A stretch of DNA of 38,482 nt from Desulfosoma sp. (lineage in GTDB: Bacteria; Desulfobacterota; Syntrophobacteria; Syntrophobacterales; DSM-9756), in assembly GCA_037481835.1 (NCBI GenBank), contig JBBFKW010000021.1, forward strand, positions 1 through 38,482, read 5' to 3'. The translations under genes were made by a program, and so were the position numbers. Of this stretch, positions 3,223 through 8,305 are shown in pieces. Each line of letters begins with the position of its first letter. Position 1 is the first letter of the stretch. The notes under the pieces are model-generated. The model worked only from the letters and a program-made list of their open reading frames with translations. It did not search any database and was not told where the DNA came from.

Positions 3223-3305
3223 AGCATCACAGAGCGGCATTGCAGCTGCGCCTGCAGGAGGCCGGCTGCGATGGCGACATCGCATCGCACCAAGAGGTCA
3301 ATCCC

Positions 3306-4127
3306 ATGGGCATGAGCGTTTCTTTATACAGAAAACTGCAAAACGTGCCGCCGGACCTTCGTGAAGTGCTGCTCAGCCTCTTCGAAGAGGTCGAGCGCAA
3401 TCGTGAGGAATCGGTGTCCAAAAAAGAGTTTGTCGAGCTCAAGGAGGTGGTCCGTGAACTGGCGGATGCCCAGCTGAAGACCGACAAGCAACTAGGCGTT
3501 CTCACGGCCAAGGTGGAGGAGCTTGCGGAGGCGCAAAAACGCACCGAGACCCGTTTGAACGCTCTGGCGAGCAAAGTGGAGGAGCTGGCCGAAGCGCAAA
3601 AGCGGACGGAAGCTCGGCTGGAGGAGCTGGCCGAAGCCCAAAAGCGGACGGAAGCTCGGCTGGAGGAGCTGGCCGAAGCCCAGACACGGACGGAAAAAGA
3701 GGTGGCCAGCTTGGCCCGGGGTCTTAAAGTAACGCGGGAACAACTGGGCGGGCTTTCCAAAAGCATGGCCTATGCCCTGGAAAACGAAGCCTATCGGAAA
3801 CTTCCGGCCTACCTGGCTTCGGCGCACGGCATCCGGGTGAAGGAGCGGATCGTGCGGGCCGATGTTGCGGACGAGGAGATCAATTTCTTCGCAAGGGCGG
3901 AAAAAGACGGCAAGCCCGTGATTCTCGTCGGGGAATCGGTCCTCCGGTTGGATGATGCGTCCAAGTTGAAGAGCCTGATGGACAAAGTGGAGAAGGTGGG
4001 TTCGGTCTACGGGGACGAATTGGTGCCCATTTTGGTGACGCACTTTGCCAAACCCAAAGTGTTGGACAAGGCCCGACAGGCTGGCATTTGTGTCGTCCAA
4101 AGTTTCGAATGGGACGAGAGCCCCTGA
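3306..4127 (+). CDS. Coiled-coil repeat protein with C-terminal PD-(D/E)XK-like domain (DUF3782-like architecture)
   Basis: Repeats of [14 protein letters not shown] followed by [14 protein letters not shown] and EEIN...ILVGES. Confidence 0.7.
3514..3694 (+). repeat. Intragenic tandem repeat: one 63-bp unit then 42-bp units
   Basis: TGGAGGAGCT starts at 3514, 3577, 3619 and 3661; the 42-bp copies are near-identical. Confidence 0.9.
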
Positions 4128-4148
4128 AGCCGGGCGCGGGGAGAACCC

Positions 4149-6113
4149 CTACGACGAAGTGGGGTCCGCACGGCGGACGTTCCAGAAGGTTTTGGCGTAC
4201 TCTTCCGAAAGGATGCGGCGGTCGCCCACACGCACGGTCATGCCGATGGAATCCAGATAATCCAGGATGCTGAGGCCCCGAGTGCGGCCGAATCCAAAAA
4301 GATCCGCACAGTCGCCGACGGTGACGGCACCGTCTCGAAGAATCTTTGTTCGGACCTTCACCTTGATCTCTTCCAAAGCCTCTCGAGTCATGTAGCGGCC
4401 GTCCCGCAGGCGCACCAAGGTTTTTTGGGCCGTCAGATAGTCGACGAGTTTTTGGACCTCCGGCCGCGGATAGCGTTCGCCGTGATCGTCGCAGAAAGTG
4501 CCGACGGCGAAGGTCCGCCATCCCAACTTCTTTGCGTAATCCAGAATCCTTTGGACGATTTCCTGCTGGCGCCGCGGCAGGACCGTGACCCGATCGGGCA
4601 GCCGATACCCGCCCGAATCCCGGGTGACTGTGCCGCGGCCTTCCAAATCCGCCAAGACGTGCTCGACGACGGCGTCATCTATGGGAGCATCGACCCGGTG
4701 TCGGATTTCCTGCGGGGTCACGGTGGTTTTCAGGGGATTTTCGGCGAGGATTTCCGAAAGAGCCCTGAAAACTTCGCGGCTCAGGTGGCTGTAGGAATCC
4801 TTGGGCATGATGCGTTGGCCGCCGATCTGAACATAGCGTCCCTCTCGGCAGGCGCGTTCCACATGATCGGCGACGGTCCGAGACGGAAAGCCGGTCGCCC
4901 GCGTAATTTCCGTGAGGCTCACGGCGCGATGGCCCGTCCGTTCAAACAATTTGTTCACGGCGTTTGGGACGTCTTCGTGCATGAGGCAGCGCAGAAAAGG
5001 GATGACCTTGGATGCCTTGCGCTCACGATATTTTTGCCCGGAAACCTCCAAGACGATCCCTCCACCCAGCAGGGCTTCCAGATCCACGGAGCACATGACG
5101 AAGGGGTCCCGTGCCAAAGCCGCCGTGGCTCTTTCCAGGCGGAATTGCACCAGGCCGGACTCCCCAGGGGCCAAGGTTTCGCGCTCCATGAGAACGACAA
5201 CGGCGTTATGGCATCCCGTTCCCACGTGGATTTTTACCCGGGTCCTGTTCACGAGAGGGCGGGGGGCATATCGGGACATCTGCAGCCGAGCGTTGAGGTA
5301 GAAGGCCGGGGCAGCGTATTCGGGCGTTACGAGCGCCATGCCGTGATCCACCGCCTCTGTGGGCACCCCCCTCAGGTTGATCCCCGCGCGCATGCCCGCC
5401 TCGATGCGCGGGACCCGTTCGTGGTGCACTTCCAAAAATCGGGCCGTGACCACTTGGCGGGCCGGAAGCAGCTCCACGGGATCGCCTTCAGCAAGGGTTC
5501 CCGACAGGACCGTGCCGGAAACCACGGTGCCGAATCCCGCCGCCTGGATCACCCGATCGATCCATAGACGAAATACAGGGTGCACAGTCTCCGTGCGGAT
5601 CGAATTCGCGAGGCGTTGGATCTCACGGAGCACGGCTTTAAGCCCGCGGCCGTCTACGGCGGAAAAAGGAAGGATCGGACACCCCTCCAGGAACGTGTCG
5701 CGCACGAGGTCCCGAACTTCCATGGCCGCCAGTTCCAGGGTTTCTTCGTCCACCAAATCCGCTTTGCTCAGCACGACGAGACCGGTTGAGGCGCCCATGA
5801 ACCTCAGGATTTCCAGGTGATCCAGGGTTTGAGGCATGACGCCGTCGTCGGCGGCGACCACAAGGAGCGCCGCCCGCACGGTGCTCAAACCCCGGATGGT
5901 GTTTTTTCGGAAATCCTTGTGTCCCGGAACATCCATCAAGGCGATGCGGCGGCCGTCAGGGAGGACGAGAGGGGCCACGCCGGGTTCGATGGTCAAGCCG
6001 CGGCGTTTTTCTTCTTTCAATCGGTCCGTGTCCCAGCCGGTGAGGGCCTTTACCAGAGAGGTTTTGCCGTGATCCACATGGCCTGCGATGCCGATAAGGC
6101 ACGGGGGATTCAT
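4149..6113 (-). CDS. selB: Selenocysteine-specific elongation factor SelB, divergent (SelB*-like)
   Basis: IAGHVDHGKT, DVPGH, VVAADDGVMPQT, IDRV...GFGTVVSGT, and C-terminal winged helix LDYLDSIGMTVRVGDRR; 654 aa. Confidence 0.93.
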   Translation of the reverse strand: MNPPCLIGIAGHVDHGKTSLVKALTGWDTDRLKEEKRRGLTIEPGVAPLVLPDGRRIALMDVPGHKDFRKNTIRGLSTVRAALLVVAADDGVMPQTLDHLEILRFMGASTGLVVLSKADLVDEETLELAAMEVRDLVRDTFLEGCPILPFSAVDGRGLKAVLREIQRLANSIRTETVHPVFRLWIDRVIQAAGFGTVVSGTVLSGTLAEGDPVELLPARQVVTARFLEVHHERVPRIEAGMRAGINLRGVPTEAVDHGMALVTPEYAAPAFYLNARLQMSRYAPRPLVNRTRVKIHVGTGCHNAVVVLMERETLAPGESGLVQFRLERATAALARDPFVMCSVDLEALLGGGIVLEVSGQKYRERKASKVIPFLRCLMHEDVPNAVNKLFERTGHRAVSLTEITRATGFPSRTVADHVERACREGRYVQIGGQRIMPKDSYSHLSREVFRALSEILAENPLKTTVTPQEIRHRVDAPIDDAVVEHVLADLEGRGTVTRDSGGYRLPDRVTVLPRRQQEIVQRILDYAKKLGWRTFAVGTFCDDHGERYPRPEVQKLVDYLTAQKTLVRLRDGRYMTREALEEIKVKVRTKILRDGAVTVGDCADLFGFGRTRGLSILDYLDSIGMTVRVGDRRILSEEYAKTFWNVRRADPTSS

Positions 6114-6131
6114 GGGCCTCCTTTCTGCGAC

Positions 6132-6686
6132 TCAGCACACGGTCTTTGGGACCAACGTTTCACGAAACAGGCGGATCGCTTCCGGAACCGCTTTGCGGAC
6201 GAGCACAGGGCGTTCCATCCCTGCGCCCAAGCGGTCCTCTTCGTACCCGGGATGAGCCGGGAGCGGGGCCGGCGTTTCGGCGAGCGCCGCGGTGTCGTAA
6301 ATGGTCCGGTCGCAGGCCGCCTCGAGGAGCGGCTTTTTCGCAGCGGCGGGTCGGTCCACCCAACCCAATCGGGCCATGATTTCGAACCGGGCTTGGTCGA
6401 TGAGGTAAAAGTAGCCGTTGAGAAGTCGGCACAGGGTGTCCAGATCCTGAGACTCGAAGGCTTCTCCGTGGCCCAATCCCTGACAGACCATAATGAAATC
6501 ATAAAGAGCCGTTTGGGCCTCGTCGCTTTCGGAGGCAAAGGCGAGAAGCACCGAGCCGGGAAGATCCTTCCAGGTGGTCGATGCGTTCCACAGGCCTTGT
6601 CCAGGAAAGAGCCAGCGGCACAGGCGAAAAGCCCGGTCGGCCAGTTTGCGGTATTTGTACCCTTCGAGGGAGACCACATCGCCCAT
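6132..6686 (-). CDS. Hypothetical protein in the selC*-mvhD-selB* operon
   Basis: Protein-like ORF (MGDVVSLEGYK...PKTVC*) filling the mvhD-selB gap; start uncertain (6686 or 6728). Confidence 0.7.
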   Translation of the reverse strand: MGDVVSLEGYKYRKLADRAFRLCRWLFPGQGLWNASTTWKDLPGSVLLAFASESDEAQTALYDFIMVCQGLGHGEAFESQDLDTLCRLLNGYFYLIDQARFEIMARLGWVDRPAAAKKPLLEAACDRTIYDTAALAETPAPLPAHPGYEEDRLGAGMERPVLVRKAVPEAIRLFRETLVPKTVC

Positions 6687-6756
6687 CAGTCGTTGCTTTT
6701 CATGAAATTGACGGCGTGCTCTGCCCATTGGAGGCCACCAATTGATGAGAAAAAAA

Positions 6757-7218
6757 TCATTGGGATGCCGCTTTCTTTTGAAGAAGGGGCTCGGGTTCCC
6801 ACAAAGACGGATACAGGGGCCCCAGAGCTCTGATGCGATCGGTGATATCCCGGCAGCATTGAGCGAACTGCGGTCCCATGGAGGCGGAGTTGTAAACCAT
6901 TCCCACGCGTTCCGGTTCCACACCGAGCGCCTCCAGAAGCTTCTGCACTCGGGCGACCCGCTTGGCGGCTTTGAGGTTCCCGGAAATATAATGGCATTCG
7001 CCGGAAAGACAGCCGGAGACGTAAACGGCGTCGGCTCCTTGTTCCAGCGGCTTTAAGAGATGCACGACATCGACGCGTCCCGTGCAGGGCACGCGAACGA
7101 TGTAAACGTTCGGCGGATAGGACAAGCGCATGGCGCCGGCGAGATCCGCCGCCGTGTAGGAACACCATTGGCAGCAGTACAGAAGGATTTTGGGCTCGAA
7201 CCGTTGGGCTGTGGCCAT
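6757..7218 (-). CDS. mvhD: Methyl-viologen-reducing hydrogenase delta subunit / FlpD-like [2Fe-2S] protein
   Basis: FEPKILLYCCQWCSYTAADLAG, RVPCTGRVD, GADAVYVSGC..GECHY..GN; GGAG upstream of ATG 7218. Confidence 0.93.
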   Translation of the reverse strand: MATAQRFEPKILLYCCQWCSYTAADLAGAMRLSYPPNVYIVRVPCTGRVDVVHLLKPLEQGADAVYVSGCLSGECHYISGNLKAAKRVARVQKLLEALGVEPERVGMVYNSASMGPQFAQCCRDITDRIRALGPLYPSLWEPEPLLQKKAASQ

Positions 7219-7234
7219 GAGGAGTGCTCCCGAC

Positions 7235-7326
7235 TGGAGGGGGCAAGGGGAATCGAACCTCCTCCCGGTTGATGAGACCGGGCCGACGGGTTTGCAGCCC
7301 GCGGGGCGCCCAGCGCCGTTGCCCCC
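7235..7326 (-). tRNA. Atypical tRNA-Cys(GCA) with tRNA-Sec-like 8/4 fold (selC*-type)
   Basis: Acceptor GGGGGCAA/TTGCCCCC (8 bp), D-arm GGCGC-TGG-GCGCC, anticodon arm GCGGG-CT GCA AA-CCCGT, variable arm CCCGGT-N7-ACCGGG, T-arm GG(A)GG-TTCGATT-CCCC, discriminator T and encoded CCA. Confidence 0.9.
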
Positions 7327-7374
7327 GAAAACCGAAGTCCGCATCTGCGTGCCCGAATCCGATATGGCGGTTGG

Positions 7375-7404
7375 CTCTTACGACCACATCGGCCGATGTG
7401 TCAA
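7375..7404 (-). promoter_or_regulatory. Putative sigma70 promoter of the selC* operon with palindromic operator
   Basis: Minus strand TTGACA-N18-TAAGAG; perfect 16-bp palindrome CACATCGGCCGATGTG at 7385-7400. Confidence 0.5.
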
Positions 7405-7469
7405 ATAGGTAATTTCGATAATCCAGGAGAGCCTCCTTCGGTTTTCGGCCGTCCGGGTTTTTTCGATTC

Positions 7470-7498
7470 TTGCACAGCGGCCGTCGGTGGCGTATGGT
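7470..7498 (+). promoter_or_regulatory. Putative sigma70 promoter of the glnQ-like gene and ilvE
   Basis: TTGCAC-N17-TATGGT about 40 nt upstream of ATG 7538. Confidence 0.5.
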
Positions 7499-7537
7499 GG
7501 GCCGAAGGCAGAGTGAGGTAAGACGGGTAGAAGGACC

Positions 7538-8305
7538 ATGAAAGAGGCGGCTTCAGCGGTGCAACCGGCTATGCCCATGATCCTTTTTCGGGGCGTGAAC
7601 AAGTGGTTCGGCCCCTTGCACGTGCTCAAGGACATCGACTTTACGGTGGATCCCGGGGAAGTGGTGGTGGTGTGCGGGCCGAGCGGGTCCGGAAAAAGCA
7701 CCATGATCCGGTGCATCAACAAGTTGGAGCCCATCCAAAAAGGGACCATCGTGGTGGACGGGATGGATCTGAGTGATCCCAAGACGGACATCACCAAGCT
7801 TCGGGCCGAAATCGGCTTCGTATTCCAGCAATTCAACCTGTACCCGCACATGACGGCTCTGGAAAACATCACGCTGGCGCCCATGAAGGTGCGCAAGATG
7901 TCCCGTCGGGAAGCCGAGGACATCGCCCTGGAAATCTTGGAAAAGGTGGGCATCCGCGAAAAAGCGCACCACTATCCGGCCCAGCTTTCCGGAGGCCAGC
8001 AGCAGCGGGTGGCCATCGCCCGAGGCTTGGCCATGCGGCCCAAGATCATGCTCTTCGATGAGCCCACGTCGGCCCTGGACCCGGAGATGATCAACGAGGT
8101 CTTGGATGTCATGAAGAATTTGGCCAAGGAAGGGATGACCATGGTGGTGGTCACCCACGAAATGGGCTTCGCACGGGAGGTGGCCCACCGCGTGGTGTTC
8201 ATGGACGAGGGGCGTCTCATCGAGAGCGCGCCTCCGGAGGAGTTCTTTTCAAACCCGCAGAACGAGCGGACTCGGTTGTTTTTGAGCAAGATCCTGACGC
8301 ACTAG
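7538..8305 (+). CDS. Polar amino acid ABC transporter ATP-binding protein (GlnQ/GltL-like)
   Basis: [61 protein letters not shown]. Confidence 0.95.

Follow-up and report, generated by a model that had tools for sequence, protein, structure and literature searches.

Which amino acid is carried, and which codon is read, by a tRNA whose body resembles that of a selenocysteine (Sec) tRNA and whose identity marks are those of a cysteine (Cys) tRNA? This question is raised by a gene of Desulfosoma sp. (assembly GCA_037481835.1), located at positions 7235-7326 on the minus strand of contig JBBFKW010000021.1. The window, meaning the whole stretch of DNA analysed, covers positions 1-38,482 of this contig. 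The window tRNA belongs to the published (8/4) selC* tRNA-Cys class, also named tRNAReC, and thus a known system gains a further example. As the best explanation of its function, we consider it fairly probable that a paralogue of the elongation factor SelB, named SelB*, delivers the tRNA and that Cys is thereby inserted at UGA codons marked by a Sec insertion sequence (SECIS).

The selC*/SelB* pair is a rare example from nature of a codon gaining a second meaning through the joint duplication of a tRNA, an elongation factor and, in some cases, a synthetase. It has been in the literature since 2017-2018, and the window copy leaves that picture unchanged. Modest additions made here are the operon that links the pair with a Cys-type MvhD and a protein of no known family, and a list of pocket and domain-III residues separating SelB* from SelB, which is testable by mutagenesis.

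A tRNA of tRNA-Sec-like build with cysteine-type identity marks

One tRNA was detected in the 38.5-kb window. ARAGORN classified it as tRNA-Cys with the anticodon GCA, running from 7326 to 7235 on the minus strand with a length of 92 nt. In the search of the whole window against Rfam, the tRNA-Sec family RF01852 was the sole family above its gathering score (7239-7326, minus strand, 53.1 bits with a cut-off of 47, E 4.3e-08). In the alignment to this family three positions are deleted before the D arm.

Read in the 8/4 form, the acceptor stem consists of 8 pairs, formed by positions 1-8 and 81-88 of the tRNA (GGGGGCAA / UUGCCCCC), and is followed by C9 as a lone linker. The D stem has 5 bp (10-14/18-22) and a loop of 3 nt. 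Seven pairs and one bulge form the anticodon stem (23-29/37-44), which closes the loop CUGCAAA. The variable stem of 6 bp (45-50/58-63) contains four covarying pairs. In the T stem G65, G66, G68 and G69 pair with C77-C80, A67 being bulged, and the loop is UUCGAUU. The discriminator is U89, corresponding to U73, and the CCA end is encoded. U73 and the anticodon GCA are the main identity elements for cysteinyl-tRNA synthetase (CysRS).

An alignment combined the window tRNA with 16 homologues that neighbour SelB*-type genes (17 tRNAs, 15 distinct). Under the proposed structure 97.8% of the cells were paired. Nine double-sided pair changes were counted, and the covariation score was reached by none of 500 shuffles. 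G1-C88 is swapped to A1-U88 in six of the 17 tRNAs. Since this covariation sets the register of the acceptor stem, position 89 (U) is the discriminator. The anticodon is UCA in ten of the 17, and the loop CU-GCA/UCA-AA is invariant except for position 34. Mean column identity amounts to 91%, though the partner SelB* proteins are just 40-53% identical. The pair A8-U81 and the entire T stem never vary, and because of this the covariation does not decide on the 8/4 split.

In the fold of minimum free energy (-47.9 kcal/mol) U81 pairs with A64, which gives a 7-bp acceptor stem and a 5-bp T stem with bulged A67. The 8/4 fold, with U81 paired to A8, has -47.2 kcal/mol, and a 7/5 fold with an A.C mismatch -44.8 kcal/mol. 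Folding energy alone does not separate 8/4 from 7/5 with a bulge; what the sequence gives is a 12-bp branch with a bulged A. Assignment of the 8/4 split rests on published mutagenesis of a relative (PMC5389517). The fold z-score against shuffles is just -1.66, and it is the detectors and the covariation, not the energy, that put the tRNA structure beyond chance. The tRNA gene is real, with a tRNA-Sec-like build and cysteine-type identity marks. An earlier note, made from the letters of the sequence, had placed it at precisely the position found by ARAGORN, leaving the strand unstated. Sequence and covariation bear out the stems, the GCA anticodon, U73 and the CCA described there; the 8/4 division, given in the same description, is not distinguished from the bulged 7/5 form by these near-equal energies and non-varying pairs.

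The class was defined as selC* tRNA-Cys with U73 and an anticodon GCA or UCA (Mukai et al. 2017, PMC5389517). In certain delta-proteobacteria the selC* fold is modified to 8/4 with a bulged A51a, and selC* of Syntrophobacterales and Desulfobacterales is followed downstream by a second selB, named selB* (PMC5389517). The same study demonstrated charging with cysteine in vitro for the homologue of Desulfomonile tiedjei, and its experiment on a relative favoured the 8-bp acceptor stem. According to these authors, all genomes with selC* also keep the canonical tRNA-Cys, tRNA-Sec and Sec machinery. The forms with UCA and A1:U72 come with a dedicated CysRS*; this enzyme, present in a subgroup of the Desulfobacterales type, lacks the anticodon-binding domain (PMC5389517). 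The supplementary sheet 3, 'selC-like tRNAsCys', includes Desulfacinum infernum, D. hydrothermale and Desulfomonile tiedjei. Compared by eye, the window tRNA differs from these sequences at 4-5 of 92 positions, with 4 for selC* of Desulfacinum infernum and 5 for that of Desulfomonile tiedjei.

The (8/4) selC* of Syntrophobacterales shares with the window tRNA the length of 92 nt, the G1:C72 type of acceptor stem, the bulged A, U73, GCA and the encoded CCA, and in the 8/4 reading also the stem lengths of 8 bp (acceptor) and 4 bp (T arm). In both cases selB* is located downstream in the same orientation, and a complete canonical Sec machinery is encoded elsewhere in the genome. In the window, a Cys-type mvhD and a conserved gene of no known family stand between the tRNA and selB*. 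The terms MvhD, hydrogenase, heterodisulfide and SECIS each have no occurrence in the main text of PMC5389517, of which the supplementary figures may show the neighbourhood. The selC*(UCA)-selB*(-cysS*) loci of Desulfobacterales, of the Desulfococcus biacutus type, have a similar tRNA body (91% mean column identity) and SelB proteins of the same clade. In contrast to the window tRNA with GCA and G1:C72, theirs have UCA and many have A1:U72 (six of 17); no cysS* was found at the window locus.

The clostridial tRNAReC of Desulfotomaculum nigrificans is likewise tRNA-Sec-like, has U73 and GCA and exists alongside a normal tRNA-Sec. According to papers citing the original work, it carries Cys, is not accepted by EF-Tu and serves at SECIS-marked UGA (PMC13582414, PMC11415595). 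It differs in its tRNA body (sequences of sheet 3) and works with an ordinary SelB; a SelB* is not reported for it in these sources. Canonical bacterial tRNA-Sec resembles the window tRNA in its long variable arm, in scoring above threshold with RF01852, in having a SECIS-binding protein of the SelB family as its own factor and, in the 8/4 reading, in the 8-bp acceptor stem. Its anticodon is UCA, its discriminator G73 and its branch 13 bp (8/5), whereas the window tRNA has GCA, U73 and 12 bp and lacks the three positions before the D arm. GCA, U73 and the 12-bp branch rule out membership in this class. The class of canonical tRNA-Cys (7/5, short variable loop, about 75 nt) is ruled out by the 92 nt and the 6-bp variable arm. 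Allo-tRNAs (8/4 or 9/3) have serine identity, a long D stem with tetraloop and varied anticodons, and no linked SelB paralogue; the 3-nt D loop, the CysRS identity set and the linked selB* exclude this class too.

The host genome comprises 3.63 Mb in 38 contigs. A canonical tRNA-Cys(GCA) of 75 nt is encoded at C10:138289-138363, and a canonical tRNA-Sec on contig C2 (99 nt, UCA, G73, 8/5, 74.5 bits). As both are present elsewhere, the window tRNA is an extra tRNA. In addition, selA (627 bits), a canonical selB (411 bits), cysS (583 bits) and selD (C9:80257-81183, 377 bits, one in-frame TGA) were found.

SelB* and the operon

The gene selB* (4149-6113, minus strand, 654 aa) matches TIGR00475 with 277.8 bits (cut-off 242) and the Pfam domains GTP_EFTU, GTP_EFTU_D2, Beta-barrel_SelB and SelB-wing_3. 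All SelB domains are retained, including the C-terminal SECIS-binding winged helix. A scan for SelB with one genome per species returned 80 loci. The tree contained 76 rows; six cut or chimeric rows were dropped, and the frameshifted locus L031 was trimmed. The window SelB* and 12 loci with 40-53% identity form a separate clade, with a support of 100 in the Shimodaira-Hasegawa-like approximate likelihood ratio test (SH-aLRT) and a branch of 0.81. The host's canonical SelB groups with ordinary Desulfobacteraceae SelBs. A 92-nt tRNA of the selC* type lies upstream of selB* in 11 of the 12 loci, ten with the anticodon UCA and one with GCA; the twelfth (L038) is cut there. Both forms, SelB and SelB*, occur together in 13 of the 96 genomes of the order.

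The clade was compared with 56 canonical SelBs, the positions being mapped on the structures from E. coli and Aquifex. The Asp-Arg salt bridge of the Sec pocket and the His are retained. In all 12 SelB* the stacking Phe45 (A. aeolicus numbering) is replaced by V, I or A, Gln227 and Ala243 of the A76 pocket by Glu and Gly, and Met72 by Thr; Ala74 is Arg in 11 of the 12. At the three pocket positions the window SelB* has V46, E228 and G244 (window numbering). At the position of E. coli Arg181, eight of the 12 have Gln and the window SelB* has Arg. The domain-III motif R..SP..T is absent from the clade. In SelB the His holds the amino group, the Phe stacks on the Arg, and domain III contacts the T arm and the extra arm (Itoh et al. 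2015, PMC4605307). Judged from the sequences, the changes would be consistent with a factor adapted to a different aminoacyl group and to a tRNA with a branch of 12 instead of 13 bp. A report on binding of selC* tRNA by SelB* itself was not found in the literature searched.

The two genes between the tRNA and selB* are closely spaced, and selB* begins 1.1 kb downstream of the tRNA. The first is mvhD/FlpD (6757-7218, minus strand, 153 aa), which matches PF02662 with E 2.5e-48 and the VhuD-like family NF045873 below its cut-off. Its ATG is located 16 nt past the CCA of the tRNA, with GGGAG ahead of it. An open reading frame (ORF) at 6757-7344 comprises mvhD with a false N-terminal extension that covers the tRNA, and gene callers would hide the selC* tRNA under this extension. 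The second is a conserved gene of no known family (6132-6728, minus strand). It encodes 198 aa from the ATG at 6728 or 185 aa from the ATG at 6689, the start used by its orthologues. The ATG of selB* follows 18 nt past the upstream stop codon, with AAAGGAGG 3 nt ahead of it.

A promoter is tentatively placed at 7375-7404 on the minus strand, about 45 nt upstream of the 5' end of the tRNA. The candidate consists of TTGACA (7404-7399), an 18-nt spacer and a weak -10-like TAAGAG (7380-7375). The block with TTGACA is invariant in three congeneric genomes. A promoter consensus scan of positions 3900-7700 returned no promoter-like site. Of 15 RNA runs, none was listed as containing the locus.

The window mvhD is of the Cys type: its 'QWCSY' Cys codon is TGT, and the codon at this place in the paralogue C5:148759 is TGA. 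The mvhD genes linked to selC*/selB* at the loci L030, L031, L033, L034 and L099 contain no TGA in frame. The same holds for 20 orthologues of the 185-198-aa gene, where flags of one TGA were stop codons.

The 185-198-aa gene has GC contents of 0.67/0.46/0.68 at codon positions 1/2/3, like the flanking genes. It is taken as real because these values match its neighbours and homologues exist. The protein has no Pfam or NCBIfam match, and a Pfam search with 18 members gave nothing below E 0.07. Eight homologues were found in a collection of 5.8 billion proteins, one named 'hypothetical protein [Desulfosoma caldarium]'; in the Atlas it falls in clusters of 'hypothetical protein' only. The AF2 model is all-helical with a predicted local distance difference test (pLDDT) value of 90.8. 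A Foldseek search of this model against the PDB gave no match at E <= 0.001, and the best Z from VIA-align wide was 3.5.

In the order, 89 of 96 genomes contain matches to the 185-198-aa protein, which fall into a close form and a weaker paralogue, the latter found in most genomes (host copy C12:20937-21476). In 18 of the 20 best loci of the order mvhD lies directly upstream (orthologues L109-L127), and in six of these 20 the order is selC*(GCA)-mvhD-185-198-aa gene-selB*. Elsewhere FdhA-, HdrA- or HdrD-like genes follow the pair. At L111 the mvhD of the pair is itself of the Sec type, and at L033 the ORF in the equivalent position is unrelated to the 185-198-aa protein. Thus, selC* and selB* are placed around an older two-gene redox module of mvhD and the 185-198-aa gene. 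The arrangement suggests co-regulation of a cysteine isoform with a cysteine-recoding machinery.

A further step from this arrangement, possible though doubtful, would be to regard the four-part operon as a selenium-sparing module. A Cys-type MvhD isoform would then be made together with a system completing the remaining UGA-containing mRNAs with Cys. With the loss of Phe45 and the changes of Gln227 to Glu and Ala243 to Gly, the SelB* pocket would have adapted to the thiol, and the 185-198-aa protein would be a new partner of the MvhD complex without a part in translation.

Codon assignment and competing explanations

Insertion of Cys at UGA is the most likely reading for the window tRNA. Both the UCA and the GCA types were reported to mediate recoding of UGA with a downstream SECIS (PMC13582414, citing Vargas-Rodriguez et al. 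2018). A 2024 review describes the tRNA-Cys(GCA) of D. nigrificans as reading UGA as Cys, as not interacting with EF-Tu and as delivered by SelB (PMC11415595).

For the window a mechanism of the following kind is proposed. The tRNA, mvhD, the 185-198-aa gene and selB* would be co-transcribed as one operon on the minus strand, and the tRNA would be cut out of the transcript. The housekeeping CysRS would charge it with cysteine by way of U73 and GCA, as it does in vitro for the D. tiedjei homologue. The tRNA-Sec-like acceptor branch would make EF-Tu reject the tRNA. SelB* would bind its Cys-charged form and deliver it to ribosomes paused at UGA with a SECIS hairpin, where Cys would be inserted in place of Sec. 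For this, G34 would have to mispair with the A of UGA, as is reported for the clostridial GCA-type tRNA with an ordinary SelB. The anticodon GCA would be retained for recognition by the ordinary CysRS and not for targeting UGY, which fits the dedicated CysRS* of the UCA, A1:U72 forms. A likely use would be selenium-independent completion of selenoprotein mRNAs; this fits the Cys-type MvhD in the same operon.

In-frame TGA codons in selD and in two mvhD paralogues of the host genome make these genes candidate targets of recoding, and the retained Sec-type SelD and MvhD genes are the obvious ones. In the annotation of such genomes, a TGA in a selenoprotein gene may stand for either Cys or Sec. 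The FlpD domain was matched 14 times in total in the host genome. The two paralogues with in-frame TGA (C5:148759-149127 and C13:142901-143269) carry it at different Cys positions, in the contexts 'FCCMF-U-AY' and 'VMG-U-HLGECHY', respectively, and a MetV-like DUF5981 gene follows the C5 copy.

Several points weigh against Cys insertion at UGA by SelB*. The long variable arm is the main identity element for seryl-tRNA synthetase (SerRS), and the window tRNA has such an arm of 6 bp. U73 was accepted as compatible with serine identity in allo-tRNAs (PMC5389517). The evidence for UGA consists of two secondary citations, which concern a clostridial tRNA with an ordinary SelB in E. coli and not an 8/4 tRNA with SelB*. 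The window SelB* keeps Arg187 and the Asp-Arg pair, and the pocket changes alone show no switch from Sec to Cys. The mvhD regions compared yielded neither a specific target nor a SelB*-specific hairpin. Moreover, almost every one of the order's 96 genomes encodes a Sec-type SelD, whereas 13 encode SelB*. Given the near-universal Sec-type selD, no specific association with SelB* is seen, and rescue of SelD as the specific role was rejected.

The earlier note had taken GCA to imply decoding of UGY. This is contradicted by the secondary citations of Vargas-Rodriguez et al. (2018), which name SECIS-marked UGA for both the UCA and the GCA type. Its account of deltaproteobacterial 8/4 selC* genes with a second selB agrees with PMC5389517, and the separate canonical selC, cysT and selB which it named as worth looking for are all present in the genome. 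It had also considered that the gene might encode the only tRNA-Cys of the genome; the canonical 75-nt tRNA-Cys on contig C10 stands beside it. SelB*, described there as neighbouring, is on the same strand and downstream, with two genes between. Overall, the earlier interpretation is partly supported: it was largely right but already in print, and its codon assignment is corrected here.

Cognate decoding is an unlikely alternative, in which SelB* would bring the Cys-tRNA to hairpin-marked UGC or UGU, for example at the cluster-binding cysteines of the operon's MvhD. GCA matches UGY, the SECIS-binding winged helix is retained in SelB*, and mvhD follows 16 nt after the tRNA, the Cys of its 'QWCSY' (TGT) being the Sec position of the paralogue. 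In the 60 nt after this codon, however, no conserved hairpin was detected among six selC*-linked mvhD genes, which were indistinguishable from unlinked ones. L109, the closest relative, does not keep the strongest fold seen after the window codon (-25.7 kcal/mol). At each UGY the normal tRNA-Cys brought by EF-Tu would be a competitor, and the UCA of ten of the 17 related tRNAs is unable to read UGY.

A role outside decoding is quite improbable. The pair of SelB* and Cys-tRNA would then serve as a sensor of cysteine or selenium, as a sequestering device, or as a Cys donor for a non-ribosomal reaction linked to MvhD. In favour of this role, no specific target was found in the mvhD regions compared, and the tRNA-selB* pair encloses an mvhD module that other genomes carry alone, near FdhA-, HdrA- and HdrD-like genes. 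For some of these tRNAs non-translational roles are allowed by the authors of PMC5389517 in their Conclusion. Such a role is opposed by the architecture of SelB*, that of a translation factor with a full GTPase, domains II and III and the SECIS-binding part. The anticodon loop, invariant in the 17 tRNAs except for position 34, is as expected of a decoding tRNA. Relatives function in translation in E. coli, as described in PMC5389517 and PMC11415595.

It is very unlikely that the window tRNA is a Sec tRNA for recoding of sense codons, serylated by SerRS, converted by SelA and used by SelB* to place Sec at UGC or UGU. The published model is the tRNA-Sec of Aeromonas salmonicida, which has a tRNA-Sec body with the anticodon GCA and brings Sec to UGC by way of SerRS, SelA and a normal SelB (Mukai et al. 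2016, cited in PMC11415595). The window tRNA differs from it by the CysRS identity set of U73 and GCA, and cysteine charging in vitro was obtained with the nearly identical tRNA of D. tiedjei (PMC5389517). The RF01852 match and the 6-bp variable arm speak for a Sec tRNA, as do the Asp-Arg pair and His kept in the Sec pocket of SelB* and the Arg187 kept in the window. Set against these are the canonical tRNA-Sec (74.5 bits) already in the genome, the branch of 12 instead of 13 bp and the D arm shortened by the three positions deleted before it.

That the gene is an ordinary second tRNA-Cys isoacceptor used by EF-Tu, incidentally linked to selB*, or a decaying relic, is hardly credible: ARAGORN types it as plain tRNA-Cys and its lowest-energy fold is formally 7/5 with a bulge, but it has 92 nt and a 6-bp variable arm versus the 75 nt of the host's tRNA-Cys, its column identity of 91% against 40-53% for SelB* together with compensatory changes points to selection, selB* is linked in 11 of 12 and in six of 20 loci, and the published experiment on a relative favoured an 8-bp acceptor stem (PMC5389517).

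Further observations in the window and in related genomes

As the last gene of the operon, selB* is convergent with a transporter operon on the plus strand. There, an ORF of 295 aa (3240-4127, plus strand) follows an ABC-2 permease gene and faces selB*; it has GC contents of 0.68/0.36/0.72 at codon positions 1/2/3 and no Pfam match. In the remaining window no selenium-linked genes were found; it encodes ABC transporters, serA, an aminotransferase, a dihydroorotate dehydrogenase, an oxidoreductase and cyclases.

A second cysS-like gene of the host (C1:176017-177402) was considered as a dedicated synthetase and rejected, since it encodes a PALP-CysRS-like fusion, which 90 of the order's 96 genomes carry regardless of SelB*. 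The host fusion (L021:562-2895, plus strand) has 777 aa, with a PLP (pyridoxal phosphate)-dependent cysteine-synthase-like domain and a full CysRS-like body of the domains tRNA-synt_1e, DALR_2 and CysS_C. It scores 237 bits, below the cysS cut-off, and by eye its HIGH motif region is altered.

The other GCA-type locus of the SelB* clade, L031:18-7931, lies outside the order. Its selC*-selB* follows a Cys-type [NiFe] hydrogenase operon with the small and large subunits, a HycI protease, mvhD and an HdrD-like gene. The frameshift in this selB*, near position 7152, is probably an error of long-read assembly. Genome G023, from the same order as the host, carries two SelB*-type genes (contigs C28 and C43; 600 and 503 bits) in addition to a canonical selB. 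An open frame of about 745 aa containing selD, without TGA, was found in the genomes G017, G018, G023, G024 and G027.

In seven of the 12 loci, mostly of the UCA type, a gene of the HGD-D family (2-hydroxyacyl-CoA dehydratase-like, about 425 aa) adjoins selB* (L028, L029, L030, L032, L033, L035 and L099). A BcrAD/BadFG activator ATPase accompanies it in two of them. A corresponding link for the window was rejected: the HGD-D/BcrAD pair of the host, at C18:11147-12412, lies 2.3 kb from cysS with unrelated genes between and is taken as a coincidence. Genes for a YedE-like Sulf_transp protein and a Se_S_carrier (L029, L037), for a rhodanese (L099) and HdrD-like genes are also located near selB*.

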